This document shows, one piece after another, positions 12,711-62,791 of a stretch of 64,000 nt of DNA. How positions within the stretch are numbered: position 1 is the first letter of the stretch; each line of letters opens with the position of its first letter. Position numbers and translations under genes: made by a program. Source of the stretch: Escherichia phage RB69; sequence record NC_004928.1. The stretch is one strand, 5' to 3'. Under the pieces are notes generated by a model. It saw only the letters and a list, made by a program, of their open reading frames with translations. It was not told the origin of the DNA and did no database searches.

Positions 12711-12735
12711 GGGCTTCGGCCCTTAGGAGATAAAA

Positions 12736-12966
12736 ATGGTACTTGAATTTAAACAATTTTTATACGAAGCATCTATTGACGAATTCATGGGTAAAATTGC
12801 TAGTTGTCATACCTTAGAAGGGCTTGAAGAATTGGAAGCTTATTATAAGAAACGTATAAAAGAAACGGAATTAAAAGATACAGATGATATTTCTGTCAGG
12901 GATGCCTTAGCAGGTAAGCGTGCCGAACTTGAAGGCGACGATGAGGATGCGGAAGAAGATTTCTAA
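12736..12966 (+). CDS. uvsW.1: UvsW.1-like small acidic protein
   Basis: 76 aa ORF with RBS AGGAGA, directly after uvsW. Confidence 0.75.
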   Translation: MVLEFKQFLYEASIDEFMGKIASCHTLEGLEELEAYYKKRIKETELKDTDDISVRDALAGKRAELEGDDEDAEEDF

Positions 12967-27332: not shown

Positions 27333-27677
27333 TTAGAACCTCATCTGAAAGCCATGTGATTTAACATTACCGCCGCCAATATCAGAAATGTTAATTTCAC
27401 TTGCAATCGAAGGATCGATGTCAATTTCACGATTAAGTTTAGTGATAGCCAAAGTATCATGCCCATTTACTGTACGAAACTCCAAAGGACATACTACGTT
27501 GACATAGTGTTTAATTGACTCGCTAGTAGGTTGCAAATGGACCGGAAGGTTTTTAGGTGCTTTAGAGAAAACAACTTCACAAAAGTTTTTGCGGGTATCA
27601 AAATAAGTGGTCATAAACATAATATTTTCCTCAATTGGGAAGCCGAAGCTCCCAGTTAAATTAGATATCGAATTCAT
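27333..27677 (-). CDS. hypothetical protein
   Basis: 114 aa ORF. Confidence 0.5.
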   Translation of the reverse strand: MNSISNLTGSFGFPIEENIMFMTTYFDTRKNFCEVVFSKAPKNLPVHLQPTSESIKHYVNVVCPLEFRTVNGHDTLAITKLNREIDIDPSIASEINISDIGGGNVKSHGFQMRF

Positions 27678-28026
27678 TAAGAACTACATCAAAGATTGCT
27701 TCGAGATGTTCAGGTTTAGCTCGGTTACTCAGGATATGACGAATCCAAGTTTTAACCAAAAGTTTACGATTAACACCGTTCCAGCAAGGATGAGTACCTA
27801 AATCACGCTGACGGAAATCATCATCTAATGCAATTTTGAAGTTGGAACCTTCCATCGTGATTGAAACCGTGATGCCATTTTCAAATCGCATATAAACGTA
27901 ATTAGGAGTCATGCACTGTTCGATTTCACAAACTGTACCGTTTTTGTGTTTCCATAAGCAAATAACTTCAGAAGAACCAGCGATACCGTTAGAAACATAT
28001 TTACGTTCGAAGTTGATGTAGTTCAT
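27661..28026 (-). CDS. hypothetical protein
   Basis: 121 aa ORF preceded by early promoter-like element. Confidence 0.55.
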   Translation of the reverse strand: MNYINFERKYVSNGIAGSSEVICLWKHKNGTVCEIEQCMTPNYVYMRFENGITVSITMEGSNFKIALDDDFRQRDLGTHPCWNGVNRKLLVKTWIRHILSNRAKPEHLEAIFDVVLNEFDI

Positions 28027-28067
28027 TTTATTCTCCAGATGTTTAAGTTGTTTGTTGGTACAGGTCT

Positions 28068-28096
28068 ATAATAACATATCCTGTACCAAAGTAAAC
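28068..28096 (-). promoter_or_regulatory. early promoter-like element (GTTTAC, 17 nt, TATTAT) within dyad symmetry
   Basis: Minus-strand hexamers; 8-bp inverted repeat ggtacagg/cctgtacc brackets the -10. Confidence 0.45.
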
Positions 28097-28101
28097 ATTT
28101 T

Positions 28102-28473
28102 TTATTTGATTTTTGTCCACTTAGCTGAATCAATAACACCTTTTGCTTTAATCTTCTCGATTAATGACTCTGCGCGATTTCTGGCATTTTCGTACCATAC
28201 AACGTCTTCAGAGTAACCAGTTTCTTCATCTTCGTAAGTTTTAGAACGAATACAGCCATAAACTGTAGAATTCAGACGGTAAATTTCACCAGTGAAAAAG
28301 TTTTCGATTTCGATATGATAACAAAAATCGTCTGAAGGGCCATCAGGAGTTGTACAATAAACCACATCACCTTGAACTGAACGAACCATCCACTGTAACT
28401 CGTTAACAACTTGAGATTTATATCCATCATGGTCACGGCATTTAATTGTAGCATTTAAATTGATAGTGTTCAT
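28102..28473 (-). CDS. hypothetical protein
   Basis: 123 aa ORF preceded by early promoter-like element. Confidence 0.55.
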   Translation of the reverse strand: MNTINLNATIKCRDHDGYKSQVVNELQWMVRSVQGDVVYCTTPDGPSDDFCYHIEIENFFTGEIYRLNSTVYGCIRSKTYEDEETGYSEDVVWYENARNRAESLIEKIKAKGVIDSAKWTKIK

Positions 28474-28514
28474 TTTATTCTCCGGTTGTTTTATTGATTA
28501 GGTGGTACAAGTCT

Positions 28515-28543
28515 ATAGAAACACATCCTACAGGAGAGTAAAC
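28515..28543 (-). promoter_or_regulatory. early promoter-like element (GTTTAC -35, weak -10)
   Basis: Similar in sequence to the 28068-28096 element. Confidence 0.35.
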
Positions 28544-28602
28544 ATCTTTTTAAACTTTTTCTGCCCTAAACGCACAAAAGGGAGACCGAAGTCTCCCTAA
28601 AA

Positions 28603-30942: not shown

Positions 30943-30989
30943 TGTGTTGGTAGAGTTATAGTATCACAACTCCACCATGTTGTAAACCA

Positions 30990-31668: not shown

Positions 31669-31669
<1 letters not shown>
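31478..31669 (-). CDS. hypothetical protein
   Basis: 63 aa ORF. Confidence 0.45.
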
Positions 31670-32755
<1,086 letters not shown>

Positions 32756-33055: not shown

Positions 33056-33083
33056 TTAGATTTCCTCAATTATCCATAGGAGC

Positions 33084-33113
33084 ATTATACTCTGCTCCCG
33101 AGAGTTTGTAAAC
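33084..33113 (-). promoter_or_regulatory. early promoter-like element (GTTTACA -35, TATAAT -10) with dyad symmetry
   Basis: Minus-strand hexamers; ggagca/tgctcc inverted repeat around the -10. Confidence 0.5.
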
Positions 33114-33337
33114 TATTTTACTAAAGATTCGATATACTCATGAAGAGCTTTAGTCGCTACTGCCCACTTGTTCTGATATTCATTTTTCAGATTAGCACGA
33201 GACTGAACTAACAAGCGGTCATTAGTCGGAGGCAAAGATTCTAATCGTTGAATCTGACGGCCATAAATCATAGCCGCCATTTCAGATTCATAGATAAGCC
33301 CTTTAATGTATTCATGCTGTTCTTTAGTCATTGGCAT
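33113..33337 (-). CDS. hypothetical protein
   Basis: 74 aa ORF. Confidence 0.5.
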   Translation of the reverse strand: MPMTKEQHEYIKGLIYESEMAAMIYGRQIQRLESLPPTNDRLLVQSRANLKNEYQNKWAVATKALHEYIESLVK

Positions 33338-34459: not shown

Positions 34460-34521
34460 AATTTTCTCCTCGTGTTGTTGATAAAAGCCATAGTAACACC
34501 TTCCTTGGTGTTTGTAAACCA

Positions 34522-35655
<1,134 letters not shown>

Positions 35656-35702
35656 TCAGTTAGTTTTTTTTAAATTGTACCACAATCCTTGTGGTATGTA
35701 AA

Positions 35703-41662: not shown

Positions 41663-41725
41663 TTTATTCTCCTCTTCACTTTTATTTGATAGGGCTACTA
41701 TAAAATAGCCCTATCTTGTTATAAA

Positions 41726-42118
41726 CTACTTTTTAAAAGTTTTTTGCAAAAGTTTGATGATTTCGTCGACGTTGGTTTCATCTACGATACAATGGATTTT
41801 TGTTACACCTAAAGTTATACCTTCGTTAGTAGGTTGAGGCTTTACTAAATCTACCTCAGTAAAGTATTTGAACTCATCATAATAAATCTCAAAATAAGTT
41901 TCAATTTCACCACCGGCAGAACATACAGTACCATCTTCCATAGTTACACTTACTACGTTTGACGTATCGCTATCATAATCAGGTTCCATTCCGTTTACAA
42001 CAAAACTAGGCCCGTGGAGTTCAATCAATTTTAACATCTTAGCGTTACTGTGTGGTGCTTCTTGAACAAAGTCGTCTTTAAATAAAGGGTTAATGATATA
42101 AGATTTTCCAATTTCCAT
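41726..42118 (-). CDS. hypothetical protein (frd.2-like)
   Basis: Track ORF to 42217; Met at 42118 preceded by GAGGAA RBS. Confidence 0.5.
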   Translation of the reverse strand: MEIGKSYIINPLFKDDFVQEAPHSNAKMLKLIELHGPSFVVNGMEPDYDSDTSNVVSVTMEDGTVCSAGGEIETYFEIYYDEFKYFTEVDLVKPQPTNEGITLGVTKIHCIVDETNVDEIIKLLQKTFKK

Positions 42119-45792: not shown

Positions 45793-48700
45793 ATGGTTGA
45801 CATCAAACGTAAGTTCAGGGCCGAAGATGGTCTTGACGCAGGCGGTGATAAGATAGTTAACGTTGCGCTTGCTGACCGCACAGTTGGCACCGATGGCGTG
45901 AACGTTGACTTTTTGGTGCAAGAAAACACCGTACAGAATTATGACGAGACGCGCGCGTATACAAAAGATTTTATTGTTCTTTATGATAATCGTTTTTATC
46001 AAGCTTTAAGCGATATTCCAGCTCCGGCAGGCCCTTTCTCTTTGGCTAAATGGAAGGCAACTCGTACAGATGCAGAATGGATTACAGTTCAAGGCGGAGA
46101 TTTCCAATTATCAGTAGGTAACTCTATTGCGGTTGATACTTCAGCTGGCATTGATATTAATTTCACTTTGCCTCAAAATCCTTTAGATGGCGATACAGTT
46201 ATTTTGTCTGATATTGGCGGTAGAGTAGGCTATGTAAAAGTTCAAATTACTGCAGAGGCTCAAAGTATTGTAAACTTTAGAGGACAACAGGTTCGTTCAG
46301 TTTTAATGACGCACCCAAAATCTAAAATAGTATTCATTTTTAGCAACCGCCTATGGCAAATGTATGTTTCTGATTATGAACGTAATGCAGTCACAGTAAC
46401 TCCTGCTAAGCCATATCAGGCGCAACCTAACGATTTTATCATTCGACGTTTTACATCAGCCGCTCCTATTAATATTACATTGCCTCGCAATGCTAATAAT
46501 GGCGATATTATTAATTTAGTTGATTTAGACAAATTAAACCCGTTATATCACACAATTGTCAAAACTTACGATGATACAACTTCTATACGAGAAGCCGGTG
46601 TTCATGTAGCAGAAGGACGTAATACTGCAGAAGCGTTCTTTGTTTATGATTCTGCTAATAGCTTATGGCGTGTTTGGGAAGGTGACCAGAAATCTCGTTT
46701 ACGTATAGTTCGTAATGATACTGATTTACGCCCTAATGAAGAAGTTCTTGTTTTTGGAACTAATAATGATACAATCTCGACGGTAAATCTTACTTTGCCT
46801 ACAGATATTTTGTCTGGTGATACTGTTAAAATATCGTTGAATTATATGCGTAAAGGGCAAACTGTAAAAATTAAAGCTGCTGAAGGCGATACAATTGCTA
46901 GCAGTATTTCTTTATTACAGTTCCCAAAACGTTCAGAGTATCCACCTGATGCACAATGGGTTTCTGTTAGTGAGCTGGAATTTAATGGCGATACTTCGTA
47001 TGTCCCTGTACTTGAGTTGGCTTATATAGAAGATTATTCATCTGAAACAAAATATTGGGTAGTTCAACAAAACACTGTAACCGTCGAACGAGTCGATGCA
47101 TCGAGCAATACAACTCGAGCTCGTTTAGGTGTTATTGCTCTTGCTTCTCAAGCACAAGCAAATGTTGATTTAGAAAATGCTCCTGGTAAAGAACTGGCTA
47201 TTACTCCGGAAACATTAGCAAATCGTACAGCAACTGAAACTCGTCGCGGTATTGCTCGTATTGCAACAACTGCACAAGTTAACCAGAATACCGATTTTGC
47301 ATTCCAGGACGATTTGATTATTTCTCCTAAGAAATTGAACGAACGTACAGCAACTGAAACCCGTAGAGGTGTTGCTGAAGTTGCAACTCAGGCTGAAACT
47401 AATGCTGGAACAGATGATACCACTATTATTACTCCTAAGAAATTGGATGCCCGTCAAGGTTCTGAAGTTTTATCTGGTATTGTAAAATACACATCTACGA
47501 CTGGTACTACAGCTGCTACTGTTCGTGGTAATGCTGGGACTAACGTTTATAACAAAGCCGTAGATAATTTAACTATTTCTCCAAAGGCTCTTGACCAGTA
47601 TAAAGCTACCCATACTCAACAGGGCGCAGTAATTCTTGCTATTGAAAGTGAAGTTATCGCTGGCGAATCACAAGCCGGTTGGGCTAATGCTGTAGTGACC
47701 CCTGAAACTCTGCATAAGAAAACTTCTACTGATGGACGTATTGGTTTAATTGAAATTGCTACGCAAGCAGAAACTAACACTGGAACTGATTATACTAGAG
47801 CAGTAACGCCTAAGACGTTAAATGATAGGAAAGCTACGGAAGGATTATCCGGCATAGCCGAAATTGCTACGCAAGTTGAATTTGATACTGGAACTGACGA
47901 TACTCGTATCTCGTCTCCACTGAAAATTAAAACTCATTTTGATTCTTCTGACCGTACCAGTGTTAATTCTGATTCCGGACTTATTGAAGAAGGAACCTTG
48001 TGGAACCATTATACTCTTGATATTTCTAAAGCAAATGAAACACAACGCGGTACACTTCGCGTAGCGACCCAGGCAGAATCTAATGCAGGAACTTTAGATG
48101 ATGTTCTTATTACTCCTAAAAAGCTTTTAGGGACTAAGTCCACTGAAACGTCTGAAGGCGTGATTAAGGTTGCTACTCAGGCTGAAACTGTAACAGGAAC
48201 TTCTGCTAATACTGCTGTATCACCTAAGAATTTAAAATGGATTGTTCAATCAGAACCATCATGGACTGCTACTACGGCAATTCGTGGATTCGTTAAAACT
48301 TCATCTGGTTCTATTACATTTGTCGGTGACGATACTCAAGGTAATACCCAGGATTTGAATCTTTATGAGAAAAATAGTTATGCTATTTCTCCATATGAAT
48401 TAAACCGTGTACTTGCTAACTACTTACCGTTGAAAGCTAAAGCAGCTGATAGTAATTTGTTAGATGGTCTAGATTCTCTTCAGTTCATCCGTAGAGACAT
48501 CGACCAGACGGTTAATGGTTCTTTAAGTCTTACTAAACAGACCAACCTGAGTGCTCCTTTAGTATCTACAAGCACCGCTTCTTTTGGTTCCGAAGCATCT
48601 GTTACTCGTAGATTAACTCTTAATGACTCTAGCGGTTCCGAAATAGTTTTCACTAAAGGAACCCAATCTCTTAGTAATAAAGAGAATTTCGTTGTTAGAG

Positions 48701-54800: not shown

Positions 54801-54814
54801 GGGGCTTCGGCCCC
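54801..54814 (+). terminator. intercistronic C(UUCG)G hairpin between 37 and 38 (attenuator or stabiliser)
   Basis: ggggc-ttcg-gcccc immediately followed by the gp38 RBS, no T-run. Confidence 0.45.
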
Positions 54815-54826
54815 TTGGAGGTGTAT

Positions 54827-55600
54827 ATGGCAGTTGAAGGACCGTGGGTAGGATGGTCTGCAAGGGTACAGACTGGAGATCCTTGGATGGGTGGTGCCGC
54901 ACAGAGATTGAGAATGGGAATTCCGTTTTGGATGAGTAATATGATAGGTCGATCTGTTGAAGTAATTCACACGCTTGGAGCAGACCATAACTTCAATGGT
55001 CAATGGTTCCGAGATAGATGTTTTGAGGCAGGTAGTGCACCTATAGTGTTTAATATCACCGGAAATTTGGTATCATATAGTAAAGATGTTCCATTATTCT
55101 TTATGTATGGCGATACACCAAATGAATATGTTACTTTGAATATTCATGGTGGAGTTCATATGTGGGGACGAGGTGGTAACGGTACTGTAAACGGAAACCC
55201 AGGCACAAATGGCGGCGATGTAATCCAAAATGATATCGGCGGAAGACTTCGTATTTGGAACTATGGCGTTATTGCATCAGGCGGCGGTGGTGGTGGTGCA
55301 GTGTCATTACAGAATAGCTGGGCGCCAAATGCTACAGCAGGCGGCGGTGGTGGTAGACCATTTGGCATCGGCGGAGGCGGCGTTAATTGGCCGGGTGGTA
55401 ATGCTAGTTATGACGCCCCGGGCGGTGCCGGTTACACTTCCCAATTCGGCGGAGGCAATGGCGGTGATGCTGGAGGTCGGGGCGGAGATGGATGGGGTAA
55501 TCACTTATCTAGATCTGGCGGTGGTGCTCCTGGCAGAGCAGTATTCGGAAGTTCACCGTCATGGGGTGCTACAGGCACAATCTACGGCTCCTGGATTTAA
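54827..55600 (+). CDS. 38: receptor-recognising tail fibre tip adhesin gp38 (T2/T6 type, glycine-rich motifs)
   Basis: Track ORF 54815 is TTG; ATG at 54827 (MAVEGPW) follows GGAGG; several poly-Gly motifs. Confidence 0.9.
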
Positions 55601-59258: not shown

Positions 59259-60584
59259 TCAAAGTGCCTCCAAGTCTTTAGTGTACTCTGTCACAACATC
59301 AGTAGACTTCCAATACTCATTTTCTTCTTTCTTAGCTTTAGCTTCTTCTGCCAGTTTACGTGATTCATCGGAAGTGATATGGAAGATGTTAAGACCTACC
59401 AGTTTATCGACATGTTCTTTATACATTTCGATTTGTGCTAGCTCTTCAGTCAAAGCTTTACGAGTCTTGCCCTGAATCACAATTTCGCCACTGATAACTT
59501 TTTTGATGAAGTGGGCCTTAGCAAAAGCAAGTTTAAATGCTTTTTCAGATTCAAGGATTTTGTTGTCAATACGTTTCTGAACGTAAGTCTTACGGACTTC
59601 AACAAAATCTTTGATTAAGTCCACTACGTTATCGTAGACAGCTAATTTACCCTTTTCATTAATCACTGTGATGTTTTGTGAACGACGTTCGATGAGACTA
59701 AAATCTTTCATGATTTTTTCATGACGTAGCTCTTCATCATCAGGAAGCGAGTACTCTTTACGGAACTTCACCTTAAACCCAAAGCCGTGTTCACCGCAAT
59801 CATCTTCCCATGAGATTAGACCTTTGTCTTCCAACGGGTCAAGAACCTTACTCACATACGTTTCACGGTCGAATTTATATGGGATTTCAGTTATCTGCAT
59901 TTGAGTGCGAGATGTGAACTTATATGTTCCGTGAATCTCATAACGCCCATCAACTTCATGTACTTCACCACGGAATTCCGGGAATTCAACTTTTGGCTTA
60001 GTGACATTTTTACCTTGAAGAGCTTGTAATACGGCCTTTTTGACCGATTTAAAACTATGAGGCAGAATATTTGTTGCGTAACCGGTTGCAATACCGGAGA
60101 CACCATTCAAAAGAACTGTTGGAATAATAGGAAGATAGAATTTTGGCGGAATGTGTTCTTTATCTTCATGAGCTGGAGCATATTCAGTATCTTTATATAC
60201 GTTATAGAAATTTTTACTTACACGAGCAAAAATATAACGAGATGCTGCAGCCTTTTGGACTGTTCTAGAGCCAAAGTTGCCTTGGCCATCTAACAGTGGA
60301 TAGTTGTTATTCCATGTGTTAGCCATCAATGCACCTGCATCTTGTGCAGAAGATTCACCATGGTGATAACCTAAATCTGCAACACCGCCTGCAATTGACG
60401 CAAGTTTATGAAATTTTTCTTTATTACCACGAGCCAAATCTAACGCACGATGAACCACAAAACGTTGAACCGGCTTAAATCCATCAATCATGTTCGGGAT
60501 TGCACGGTTTTCAACGGTGTACATCGCATATGCTAAGGCTTCGTTATCAATAATACTTTTTAGATTACGAGAATTCAATTGCAT
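59259..60584 (-). CDS. 52: DNA topoisomerase II medium subunit gp52
   Basis: 441 aa, near-identical to recalled T4 gp52. Confidence 0.95.
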   Translation of the reverse strand: MQLNSRNLKSIIDNEALAYAMYTVENRAIPNMIDGFKPVQRFVVHRALDLARGNKEKFHKLASIAGGVADLGYHHGESSAQDAGALMANTWNNNYPLLDGQGNFGSRTVQKAAASRYIFARVSKNFYNVYKDTEYAPAHEDKEHIPPKFYLPIIPTVLLNGVSGIATGYATNILPHSFKSVKKAVLQALQGKNVTKPKVEFPEFRGEVHEVDGRYEIHGTYKFTSRTQMQITEIPYKFDRETYVSKVLDPLEDKGLISWEDDCGEHGFGFKVKFRKEYSLPDDEELRHEKIMKDFSLIERRSQNITVINEKGKLAVYDNVVDLIKDFVEVRKTYVQKRIDNKILESEKAFKLAFAKAHFIKKVISGEIVIQGKTRKALTEELAQIEMYKEHVDKLVGLNIFHITSDESRKLAEEAKAKKEENEYWKSTDVVTEYTKDLEAL

Positions 60585-60927: not shown

Positions 60928-61374
60928 TTAGTAACTCTGCAGAATGAATCTGAAATTATCTGCCAGAAGACGGTTCATTTCAGTGAGTGTTTGATATTCT
61001 GATGAATGATTGCGAGTGAACGCCAGAGCCAATTGACCTTTACCGTAACCAGTAGTCAGAGGTTTCATGTTCTTAGCTGAAACAAAGATTACATCATATT
61101 CAATATTGTTAGTGCCCATGGTACGGGCTAGTTGCGAACGGCCTTGACGAATGTGAGAAAGAATTGCATCCAACCCTTGTTTAGAACGTTGACGTCCTAC
61201 AAAGAATCGTGCTGCTACTTGTCGCCAATCAGATGAACCTTTAACAAAGAAGTAAAAACCTTCACGAGAACGAAACTCTTTAGAAACTTCAGAACCGTAT
61301 TCGCCATTACGAACTACTGCAACAACTTCACCGCCAACTGCCAGAAGGTCTTTACGAGTTAAATATTTGGACAT
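60928..61374 (-). CDS. ndd: nucleoid disruption protein Ndd
   Basis: 148 aa; T4 position and size; early promoter-like element upstream. Confidence 0.75.
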
Positions 61375-61418
61375 GCTAATTTCCTCAATTGATTAATGTT
61401 TTTGTAATCCATGAGAGC

Positions 61419-61448
61419 ATTATACTCTGCTCTCAAGAGTTTGTACAA
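61419..61448 (-). promoter_or_regulatory. early promoter-like element upstream of ndd (TTGTAC -35, TATAAT -10)
   Basis: Near-copy of the element at 33084-33113. Confidence 0.5.
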
Positions 61449-61450
61449 TT

Positions 61451-61651
61451 TTATTCGGTCATATCAGAACGTTCAAAAAGCTCTTCAACAGTTAAACATT
61501 CGGTGTCATCCTCAATAAAGAATCGGGTCCAACACGTTGGGGCGATGCAGTTATGAGTTTGTCCGGCTATAGAAGCTACACGAATAAGCTGCTGACCATT
61601 ATTCAGGACAAATTTTTCACCAATTTCAACATCTTTAAAAAGCTTAGCCAT
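61451..61651 (-). CDS. hypothetical protein
   Basis: 66 aa ORF. Confidence 0.5.
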   Translation of the reverse strand: MAKLFKDVEIGEKFVLNNGQQLIRVASIAGQTHNCIAPTCWTRFFIEDDTECLTVEELFERSDMTE

Positions 61652-61711
61652 TTTGTATTCCTCGTGTTTTGATAGGACTACTATACCATAATCCTACCTT
61701 GATGTAAACAA

Positions 61712-61822
61712 TTAAATTACATTAAAATATGTTAAAGCCAACCATGTTCCGGTGAACGAACATGCGATGTAAAAACCTGTATCGCAAATTGTTCTTAGTA
61801 CAATAAGAAGTGCATTTTTCAT
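61712..61822 (-). CDS. tiny hydrophobic peptide (36 aa)
   Basis: ATGA start/stop overlap with upstream mini-ORF. Confidence 0.3.
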   Translation of the reverse strand: MKNALLIVLRTICDTGFYIACSFTGTWLALTYFNVI

Positions 61823-61905
61823 AAGTACCTCAATACAATTGAAAATATTATACAAATCATAGGGATACTAAGCAACCATATTCCGATCCACATTTTAGAG
61901 CTCAT
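61819..61905 (-). CDS. tiny hydrophobic peptide (28 aa)
   Basis: ATGA overlap with stop of the 87-aa ORF upstream. Confidence 0.3.
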   Translation of the reverse strand: MSSKMWIGIWLLSIPMICIIFSIVLRYL

Positions 61906-62165
61906 ATCTCAACTTCCGCGAGTTCCATATATCCTTTGTTGATAACCTCTTTAAGGTCTTTAGAAAGAATAACACTAAAATGGTCGTTCATATGTCCATT
62001 AACTAAACGAGTTATTTCGGCTTCAGATGACATATAAGGCACGTCTGAGTCCCAATGAGATAGACCTAAATGGGTATAAATCATCCCTTCGTCGTCTGCA
62101 GTGTTGTACATTGAAACAAATTCGCCTGTTACTTTATGTTTTGCGTAGAAAAATTTAAATTTCAT
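61902..62165 (-). CDS. hypothetical protein
   Basis: 87 aa ORF. Confidence 0.5.
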   Translation of the reverse strand: MKFKFFYAKHKVTGEFVSMYNTADDEGMIYTHLGLSHWDSDVPYMSSEAEITRLVNGHMNDHFSVILSKDLKEVINKGYMELAEVEI

Positions 62166-62190
62166 GATGTTATCCTCTTTTAGATAGGAC

Positions 62191-62221
62191 TACTATATCA
62201 TAGTCCTACTTAGTTGTAAAC
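62191..62221 (-). promoter_or_regulatory. early promoter-like element (GTTTACA -35) with dyad symmetry
   Basis: taggacta/tagtccta inverted repeat around AT-rich -10. Confidence 0.35.
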
Positions 62222-62233
62222 ACTTTTATGAAA

Positions 62234-62791
62234 TTAAAGATGAAGATACCACCCGTTGTAGTTGCTCTTGCGGACGATTTTCTTTAGGTCTTCATGGTCT
62301 CCCACGAACTTTATAGAATAAGAGAAGACGTCAGGTGAGGTTTCTTTGACATCTAATATAATAATGCAATCTGCGACTCGATGGTTCAAGAAGGGCCCTA
62401 TATTGATTCCATTACCACCAGGATAATCACCCCTGTATCCTGTGGTAACCGAAATCCATTTACAATCTATCTGGTGCGTTTTGACTTCGACACGCAACCC
62501 GCAGTATTTAGGATGAGCTAACACGTCCCATGCATACGTGTACGGGTCTTCTACGTCTTCATTACCTTTATTAACATATCCGTCTAGCCAATTTGCTACT
62601 ACATACTCTGCAAAGACTGCAACCTTACAACGTCGAACAACGTCTTCTTTTATTTGACCTGGATCTTGTTTCAACGAGTACCGAGCAGTATCAGCGATCT
62701 TAACCTTCATTTCGCTAGTCAAAAACTCATTCGACAGGATAAATGTCGGAAGACTCTTCAGCCTCAACAGTCCCAAGTTCGTCTTTACCAT
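62234..62791 (-). CDS. denB: probable endonuclease IV (DenB) by size and position
   Basis: Track ORF to 62854; Met at 62791 gives 185 aa, the T4 DenB length; adjacent to rIIB. Confidence 0.45.
   Translation of the reverse strand: MVKTNLGLLRLKSLPTFILSNEFLTSEMKVKIADTARYSLKQDPGQIKEDVVRRCKVAVFAEYVVANWLDGYVNKGNEDVEDPYTYAWDVLAHPKYCGLRVEVKTHQIDCKWISVTTGYRGDYPGGNGINIGPFLNHRVADCIIILDVKETSPDVFSYSIKFVGDHEDLKKIVRKSNYNGWYLHL

Follow-up and report, generated by a model that had tools for sequence, protein, structure and literature searches.

Two intergenic regions of Escherichia phage RB69 carry an early promoter whose -10 hexamer lies inside an inverted repeat, which raises the question of what this repeat does there. 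The window, the whole stretch of DNA analyzed here, comprises 64,000 nt of sequence record NC_004928.1. An initial annotation described a recurrent early-promoter module with the -10 element inside a dyad and offered three readings: a shared operator, an RNA structural element, or a promoter cassette spread by recombination. The module exists as described, with both quoted sequences present and both dyads real. With good confidence, the two sites belong to a single family of immediate-early sigma-70 promoter cassettes of the T4 type that carry a hairpin, the kind known as PeSLs and their T-even analogues.

The PeSL (promoter-early stem-loop) is an early promoter combined with a stem-loop, with an AT-rich tract upstream and a Shine-Dalgarno sequence (SD) and ATG at its 3′ end. 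PeSLs are found in many copies in hyperplastic regions, and modular shuffling has been proposed as their role (PMC2839356, PMC4122927). The stem-loop most commonly lies between the -35 and -10 elements or overlaps the -10, and its stems include G-T pairs (PMC2839356). In T4 and PST, PeSLs follow the pattern TTTACW-N17-TAYWAT with AGNA-loop-TCNT stems, and the exchange at ndd.4/.5 is attributed to them (PMC4122927). The elements at T-even internal-protein loci have weaker, AT-rich stems and are considered analogues, not homologues, of the RB49 PeSLs (PMC2839356); the same paper cites Repoila et al. 1994 for PeSL-like elements at these loci. Neither PMC2839356 nor PMC4122927 mentions RB69-, JS09-, or JS98-type phages, covariation, compensatory changes, or wobble, and motB is not mentioned in the 2014 paper (PMC4122927).

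Genomic context

A 1.4-kb segment surrounding the finding matches about 150 T4-like coliphages at 97-98% identity, most of them belonging to the JS09/RB69 type (Mosigvirus), and sequence comparison places the window in a T4-like coliphage with Mosigvirus as its nearest group. The minus strand is the coding strand at both module sites (Table 1). As first proposed, copy 1 lies upstream of ndd, and its neighborhood also contains more small ORFs and a DenB-like ORF. At copy 2, the gene order is pseT.3, pseT.2, pseT.1, a 99-aa RB69ORF231c-like ORF, a 63-aa ORF230c-like ORF, and pseT. A canonical intrinsic terminator, AGGCCTAGCTTAATAGGCCT then TTAATTTATT, is located 8 nt past the ndd stop codon at 60920-60901(-); it has a T-run, whereas the promoter-embedded hairpins do not.

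Table 1. Coordinates of the module copies, the other stem-bearing early promoters, and the neighboring genes in the window
Feature	Coordinates	Strand	Remarks
Module copy 1	61375..61450	-	Entire intergenic gap, from the ndd.1-like stop (61451-61453) to the ndd ATG (61374-61372)
Copy 1 -35, TGTACA	61442..61447	-	Consensus scan: 10/12 match, 17-nt spacer
Copy 1 -35, T4-type GTTTAC register, TTGTAC	61448-61443	-	18 nt to -10
Copy 1 5′ arm, TGAGAGCA	61428..61435	-	Within promoter spacer
Copy 1 -10, TATAAT	61419..61424	-	Most of the 8-nt loop GAGTATAA; final T opens the 3′ arm
Copy 1 3′ arm, TGCTCTCA	61412..61419	-	Between -10 and predicted +1
ndd Shine-Dalgarno, GAGGAAA	61380..61386	-	Inside block AATTGAGGAAAT common to copy 2
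Module copy 2	33056..33115	-	From pseT.1 to the ATG (33055-33053) of the 99-aa RB69ORF231c-like ORF
Copy 2 -35, GTTTAC	33108..33113	-	18 nt to -10 (equivalent to TTTACA with 17 nt)
Copy 2 5′ arm, GGGAGCA	33093..33099	-	In spacer
Copy 2 -10, TATAAT	33084..33089	-	Promoter scan
Copy 2 3′ arm, TGCTCCT	33078..33084	-	Outer pair G.T on sense strand
Early promoter, GTTTAC-N18-TATAGT	62180..62221	-	Stem TAGGACTA (62208-62201)/TAGTCCTA (62192-62185)
Early promoter	61668..61709	-	Stem TAGGATTA (61696-61689)/TAGTCCTA (61680-61673); upstream of the ndd.1-like ORF
Early promoter, GTTTAT-N18-TATAGT	41685..41726	-	Stem TAGGGCTA (41713-41706)/TAGCCCTA (41697-41690)
Early promoter, GTTTAC-N18-TACTAT	30946..30987	-	Stem GGTGGAGTT (30976-30968)/AACTCTACC (30957-30949)
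Early promoter, GTTTAC-N17-TATTAT	28055..28096	-	Stem TTGGTACAGG (28089-28080)/CCTGTACCAA (28064-28055)
gp52 topoisomerase	59259-60584	-	Near copy 1
Ndd	60928-61374	-	ORF under features annotated Ndd in 97-98% identical relatives
ndd.1-like ORF, 66 aa	61451-61651	-	Upstream neighbor of ndd
pseT.1	33113-33337	-	Copy 2 site
RB69ORF231c-like ORF, 99 aa	32756-33055	-	Downstream of copy 2
pseT	31669-32568	-	Copy 2 site

Anatomy of the two module copies

Both sites share the same minus-strand order: an AT-rich tract, GTTTAC or TTGTAC, 18 nt, TATAAT, SD, and ATG. The minus-strand sequence of copy 1 is aaaaTTGTACaaactcTTGAGAGCAgagTATAATGCTCTCAtggattacaaaaacattaatcAATTGAGGAAATtagcATG(ndd) and that of copy 2 is aaataGTTTACaaactctcGGGAGCAgagTATAATGCTCCTatggatAATTGAGGAAATctaaATG. 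The 18-nt core GAGCAGAGTATAATGCTC has exactly two matches in the window, 61415-61432(-) and 33080-33097(-), where 0.03 are expected. None of 100 shuffles reached two matches, and there is no further match in the window even at three mismatches. The positions first given for the two strings are accurate to within 1-4 nt, with true extents of 61409-61446 and 33074-33113. The two are near-identical as claimed, although they agree at 33/38 positions (87%) of the quoted string, and at 85% of 46 nt aligned without gaps, rather than at about 90%. The copies are alike from the AT-rich tract through the SD block AATTGAGGAAAT, broken by a 14-nt indel; the unit therefore runs about 60-75 bp, from the UP-like tract to the SD, and covers essentially the entire intergenic region, not the 45 bp initially assigned to it. 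Nor is the similarity limited to a generic -35/-10 consensus, since the flanking dyad is also shared.

Both copies score as sigma-70-like promoters with a 17-nt spacer in the consensus scan, and both have AT-rich (aaaa-rich) tracts upstream together with the -35/-10 pair of a PeSL-type cassette. The -10 of copy 1 is preceded by GAG and not by a TGn motif, and the pseT.1 TAG stop codon (33115-33113) overlaps the -35 of copy 2. Both cassettes are intergenic, in gaps of 57-76 nt, and each carries an SD and an ATG. A MotA box was sought by eye in AATGCTCTCA and rejected; downstream, TAnnnT is missing at the required distance, and TGCT is absent from other family members.

The stem has 7-8 bp, extendable to 11 bp, and folds at -12.2 and -14.6 kcal/mol in the two copies. 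In copy 1, the helix continues outward to 61438 past a 1-nt bulge, while the outer stem pair of copy 2, which is G.T here, is A-T in JS09. The 5′ arm lies in the spacer and the 3′ arm between the -10 and the predicted start. Initiation usually occurs about 7 nt past the -10 element. The predicted starts are the A at 61412, where the 3′ arm ends, and the A at 33077, one base past the arm.

Stems at other early promoters of the window

Fifteen minus-strand T4-early-type promoters were curated in the window by the pattern GTTTAC, 17-18 nt, TAnnnT, with an AT-rich tract upstream and SD-ATG downstream. A stem of at least 7 bp brackets the -10 in 7 of the 15, with the 5′ arm in the spacer and the 3′ arm after or overlapping the -10. 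Besides the two module copies, these are five early promoters with unrelated stems in the equivalent position (Table 1). The dyads reported earlier at four of them are all present on the minus strand, and the one at 30976-30968/30957-30949(-) is an addition to that list. Four arm types, mutually unrelated in sequence, can be distinguished: GAGAGCA/TGCTCTC at the ndd and 33-kb promoters, TAGGNCTA/TAGNCCTA at promoters 62197, 61685, and 41702, GGTGGAGTT/AACTCTACC at promoter 30963, and TTGGTACAGG/CCTGTACCAA at promoter 28073.

Folding energies of the sense strands at these sites range from -12 to -19 kcal/mol, and their z-scores from -3 to -5.7. The 41685..41726 stem differs from the 62-kb stems by compensatory changes (-19.1 kcal/mol, z -5.7), and the 28055..28096 stem encloses a 15-nt loop containing the -10 (-19.1 kcal/mol, z -5.0). 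The 62180..62221 promoter lies upstream of an 87-aa ORF (61902-62165). When arms are recombined between promoters, native pairs form longer and more stable helices than chimeric pairs (mean 7.5 vs. 5.5 bp; -9.7 vs. -5.3 kcal/mol), and native arms beat all chimeric combinations (Mann-Whitney p ~0.002-0.003).

Bracketing stems are absent from roughly half of the window's early promoters (59116, 56619, 45711, 42416, 6007, and others), which indicates that promoter function does not depend on the hairpin. Among the 15 curated promoters, two (35679 and 34495) have a stem wholly inside the spacer and six have no stem. The spacer-internal stems are CCACAA/TTGTGG at 35680-35694(-) (-8.3 kcal/mol) and ACACC/GGTGT at 34496-34511(-) (-7.3 kcal/mol); stems wholly within the -35/-10 spacer correspond to another PeSL subclass named in Arbiol 2010.

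The 28-kb cassette, 28010-28103(-), has a degraded tandem duplicate at 28457-28550(-) with 77% identity over 94 nt. The repeated stretch takes in the SD GGAGAATAAAATG and the initial codons; a 121-aa ORF (27661-28026) follows the intact copy and a 123-aa ORF (28102-28473) the degraded one. In the degraded duplicate, TCCTGTAGG, a sequence resembling a direct copy of the 3′ arm, stands in place of the 5′ arm TGGTACAGG, so that the dyad is broken; the -10 (TTCTAT/TATAGA) is degenerate too. This element resembles the "half/degraded PeSLs" of Comeau 2014. The SD regions GGAGAATAAAATG and GGAGAAATAAAATG, which follow several early promoters (~28013-28025, ~41650, and ~59065, all on the minus strand), fit the strong RegB cleavage consensus, GGAGRAYARAA (PMC3014915), whereas the two module copies use the SD region GAGGAAAT instead.

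Two further groups of repeats occur on the plus strand. The GGGCTTCGGCCC hairpins, with a UUCG tetraloop, lie directly upstream of the SD/ATG of plus-strand (late) genes at 12711-12747(+) and 54802-54838(+), with 78% identity over 37 nt. Diverged direct-repeat families at 47197-48230(+), inside a long plus-strand gene of the tail-fiber region, consist of 62-nt units at spacings of 108-375 nt with 65-73% identity and probably encode a repeated protein motif.

Covariation and strand asymmetry of the stem

Relatives of the module were collected by scanning IMG/VR with TACAAACTC-N9-GAGTATAAT, a pattern that leaves both arms unspecified. The matches, together with the window and JS09, amount to 42 copies, of which 36 are distinct over a 74-nt flank; they comprise 22 distinct 46-nt sequences. 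Across the 22 distinct copies, 96% of the cells in the 8-bp helix are paired, compared with 36-57% when the 3′ partners are shifted by 1-3 columns; these cell counts are inflated, as common descent and, in part, gene conversion link the copies. Both sides have changed in five of the eight pairs, and the observed covariation score was matched by none of 500 shuffles. The module family contains about 10 covarying arm variants across relatives, including GAGAGCA/TGCTCTC, AGGAGCA/TGCTCCT, GGGAGCA/TGCTCCC, GGGGTCA/TGACCCC, GGGACCA/TGGTCCC, GAGGACA/TGTCCTC, and GAGAGA/TCTCTC.

The exceptions to Watson-Crick pairing are strand-biased. Within the module family, whose variants form a stepwise series, the intermediates are six G.T pairs and no A.C pair, read on the sense strand. 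Across 46 distinct -10-bracketing stems from the T4-like loci examined, internal transition mismatches comprise 23 G.T and 4 A.C (one-sided binomial p ~1.6e-4, from copies that are not independent). On the antisense strand, wobble pairs become A.C, and the antisense folds are consequently much weaker: the 61668..61709 stem, whose internal U.G pair is confined to the sense strand, folds at -13.7 (sense) and -3.7 kcal/mol (antisense), and the 30946..30987 stem, with one G.U pair on the sense strand, folds at -16.9 and -8.1 kcal/mol. Covariation, the bias toward G.T and away from A.C, and the weaker antisense folds together argue that pairing is selected on the sense strand. The reading as an RNA structural element agrees with both the arm covariation and the sense-strand wobble pairs. 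Over the whole window, Rfam 15 gives no match at gathering score, and none at E<=1 in 61300-62300.

These data bear directly on the operator reading, in which a dimeric phage or host protein binds the palindrome at the -10 and represses or activates early promoters. A dyad overlapping the -10 is in the classic operator position, and PMC3014915 regards the abrupt shut-off of T4 early promoters as incompletely understood in its mechanism. An operator would have an identical half-site at all regulated promoters, whereas the arms are unrelated between promoters, with at least four unrelated sequences in the window and about 10 variants in relatives. What covariation keeps is pairing rather than sequence; several dyads fall short of perfect palindromes in DNA, being G.U-paired on one strand only; the arm-to-arm distance ranges from 8 to 15 nt; and half of the early promoters have no dyad. 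Selection on the sense strand therefore speaks decisively against a sequence-specific operator, a very unlikely explanation for these sites, and makes a symmetric cruciform unlikely.

A second possibility is that the hairpin acts in DNA, where a hairpin or cruciform would offer a pre-melted -10 to sigma-70 or serve as a recombination target, for example of T4 endonuclease VII. The antisense strand, with its A.C mismatches and far weaker folds, does not provide the pairing on both strands that a cruciform requires, and 23 G.T against 4 A.C indicates one-strand selection. Extrusion is inefficient for 7-10 bp stems with loops of 8-15 nt. Promoters without a stem look just as canonical. In favor of action in DNA, the -10, where a stem exists, is always in the loop or at its edge, DNA hairpins tolerate G.T pairs, the sense strand is the non-template strand, and the PeSL authors speculate that the stem is a target of recombination proteins, with one crossover mapped inside the loop (PMC2839356). 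Taken together, action at the DNA level is quite unlikely. The hairpin probably acts as RNA and would be present only in read-through transcripts; action in the non-template DNA strand is less likely, with the proviso that G.T pairs form in single-stranded DNA too.

It could also be argued that the dyad has no function and is a passenger of a recently duplicated promoter, the other dyads being due to chance. The two window copies are 85-87% identical, and their common features could be inherited. This account is extremely unlikely, given that both arms change with pairing kept across lineages, that unrelated arms occupy the same position at other promoters, and that the folds reach z-scores of -3 to -5.7.

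Relation of the hairpin to transcription

In the strict "composite promoter-terminator" reading, the hairpin is a Rho-independent terminator that ends upstream transcription, leaving each gene on its own cassette. The hairpins resemble such terminators in lying directly past a stop codon on the transcribed strand, and one RB49 PeSL stem-loop cut lacZ expression about as much as rrnB T1 (PMC2839356). They differ in having no U-tract (the tails are ATGGATTACAAAAAC, TATCAAAAC, and ATGGATAATTGAGG), in their stems of modest GC content, which are AT-richer and weaker than the polyG/polyC stems of RB49, and in their overlap with a promoter. The minus-strand terminator scan calls none of them, whereas it calls the canonical GC stem and T-run type of this phage right after ndd. 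Without a U-tract or a call by the scan, the hairpin is not a canonical terminator, and in this lineage the published "terminator" label lacks the backing of canonical features; the strict form of this reading is unlikely.

The preferred reading of the sites as hairpin-bearing promoter cassettes suggests the following arrangement. The promoter of each cassette would drive the gene just downstream, either ndd or the RB69ORF231c-like ORF. The hairpin would be superimposed on this promoter, its arms using the spacer and the interval between the -10 and +1, which are not read base-specifically by RNA polymerase, and the constrained -10 hexamer forming the loop. The -10 would end up in the loop because, in gaps of 57-76 nt, the arms fill the positions that sigma-70 ignores base-wise. 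With transcription predicted to begin where the 3′ arm ends, RNA made from the cassette itself would lack the hairpin, which would form only in read-through RNA from upstream early promoters (for ndd, those at 61.7 and 62.2 kb). In such RNA, it would sit 0-20 nt past the upstream stop codon and may form a 3′ boundary for the upstream message, through pausing or attenuation and/or as a barrier to 3′ exonucleases after processing, without being a full intrinsic terminator. The literature searched contains no T4-specific Term-seq or Cappable-seq mapping of 3′ ends or transcription start sites.

The hairpin could alternatively be a cis element of further early-promoter control, acting in shut-off through a structure-specific factor or read-through RNA, or in the response to Alt/Mod-modified polymerase. 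This role is improbable; the evidence extends as far as selection for sense-strand pairing at about half of the early promoters.

Distribution and possible mobility of the module

The module is found upstream of at least eight unrelated gene families, in 22 distinct copies. It precedes ndd orthologues in three lineages, the ORF231c-like gene, and motB in T4, T2, NBG2, and others, where it is labeled "promoter" in one record. Other genes preceded by the module start with MS/TLRDNSF..., MSQAIKNVLNSF.../MSTKIKNVVNSF..., MNTLKKLVEF..., MKILWYVEN..., and MSKVFFGNR.... Each Mosigvirus record matches the module in up to four places, of which two are in the window; the other two, before the genes that start with MNTLKKLVEF... 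and MSTKIKNVVNSF..., were placed on IMG/VR contigs and lie outside the window. Arm variants are common to the paralogous copies of a genome, while the promoters of ndd orthologues vary from lineage to lineage, a pattern that suggests exchange between copies or lineage-specific spread. In T2 (L050, 300-365), the motB module is separated from dexA by an additional early promoter (GTTTAC...TATTAT) and a tiny ORF; two cassettes therefore stand close together there, and the motB module is the second.

Between pseT.1 and pseT, T-even lineages show five different layouts, and the module is located at the boundary. Homology breaks are given here as BLAST segment boundaries, as global-alignment flank identity is inflated by AT-rich DNA and cheap gaps. 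In T4, pseT.1 abuts pseT, and in T2 pseT.1 is followed by an ORF231c homologue without a promoter. The window has the module, ORF231c, and ORF230c, while VR5-/JS98-like phages have the module, a 160- or 153-aa gene, and ORF231c. In a fifth layout (contig L023), the module is followed by ORF231c, and homology breaks, at a deletion junction, exactly at the ATG following the module. No junction between two modules was seen among the five layouts. In two IMG/VR sequences, 2706795356 and 641509422 (L007/L009), the 160-aa (VR5-like)/153-aa (JS98-like) gene occupies about 60-540 nt past the module. Its C-terminal half is conserved (...EKERIRELVKSFEYAAKRHGQMQ...) and its N-terminal half replaced, with homology resuming about 300 nt in, so that a mosaic junction falls within coding sequence adjoining the cassette.

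The comparative layout points to a role of the module in recombination. The roughly 60-75 bp conserved between copies would provide portable homology for the T4 recombination system; because cassettes offer such homology, a gene could travel with its own promoter, which would explain the module before unrelated genes. The original suggestion of a promoter cassette spread by recombination agrees with the PeSL concept (PMC2839356, PMC4122927), with the presence of the module before at least eight gene families, and with the variable junction.

Comparison with known elements

The window cassettes combine the features of PeSLs: a sigma-70 promoter, a stem-loop, an intergenic place, several copies, and a link to indels or replacements. 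Judged by these features, the module is a PeSL-type cassette already described in kind, here in a new lineage. The T4/PST PeSLs (Comeau, Arbiol & Krisch 2014, PMC4122927) share its promoter type, AT-rich upstream tract, and SD and ATG. Their stems are likewise AT-rich and of variable sequence, and AGNA-loop-TCNT fits TAGGACTA/TAGTCCTA. They, too, are intergenic, with small ORFs of unknown function beside them; the paper names the ndd region as a site of PeSL-linked gene exchange. Unlike the PST stems, which the 2014 legend puts "just upstream" of the promoter (PMC4122927), the arms here straddle the -10.

The RB49/phi1 PeSLs (Arbiol et al. 2010, PMC2839356) are similar in being composite promoter and stem-loop cassettes with G-T pairs and a stem most often between the -35 and -10 or overlapping the -10, in their repeated copies in hyperplastic regions, and in their proposed module-shuffling role. 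RB49 promoters are near-perfect TTGACA/TATAAT with polyG/polyC stems, unlike the window cassettes. Promoter and terminator (attenuator) activity and mini-circle formation are reported for RB49/phi1 PeSLs only (PMC2839356), whereas the window cassettes are known from their sequence.

The T4 motB early promoter is the same module, AGTTTACAAACTCTTGGGACCAGAGTATAATGGTCCCGTGGAGTATAAAA (L052), and differs from the window copies mainly by compensatory arm changes; it has another downstream gene, where the window lineage has ndd and the ORF231c-like gene. In the early hairpin promoters of coliphage N4 and in Frpo of the F plasmid, the hairpin itself is what a dedicated or host polymerase recognizes on single-stranded or extruded DNA. 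The cassettes described here differ from these in having a standard duplex sigma-70 promoter, and half of their relatives lack a hairpin.

Implications

Selection of the stem on the sense strand and the absence of terminator features are what this analysis adds to the PeSL picture, and they would hold little surprise for a T4 specialist. For annotation, the sites should be labeled early promoters with an overlapping conserved hairpin (PeSL-type), and not operators or novel RNAs. Covariation and sense-only wobble indicate that the stem-loops of T-even cassettes are selected as single-strand structures, most likely of RNA, which narrows their possible roles. The module family, with its members at ndd, motB, the ORF231c-like gene, and others, is a marker for gene shuffling among T4-like phages, therapeutic ones included.
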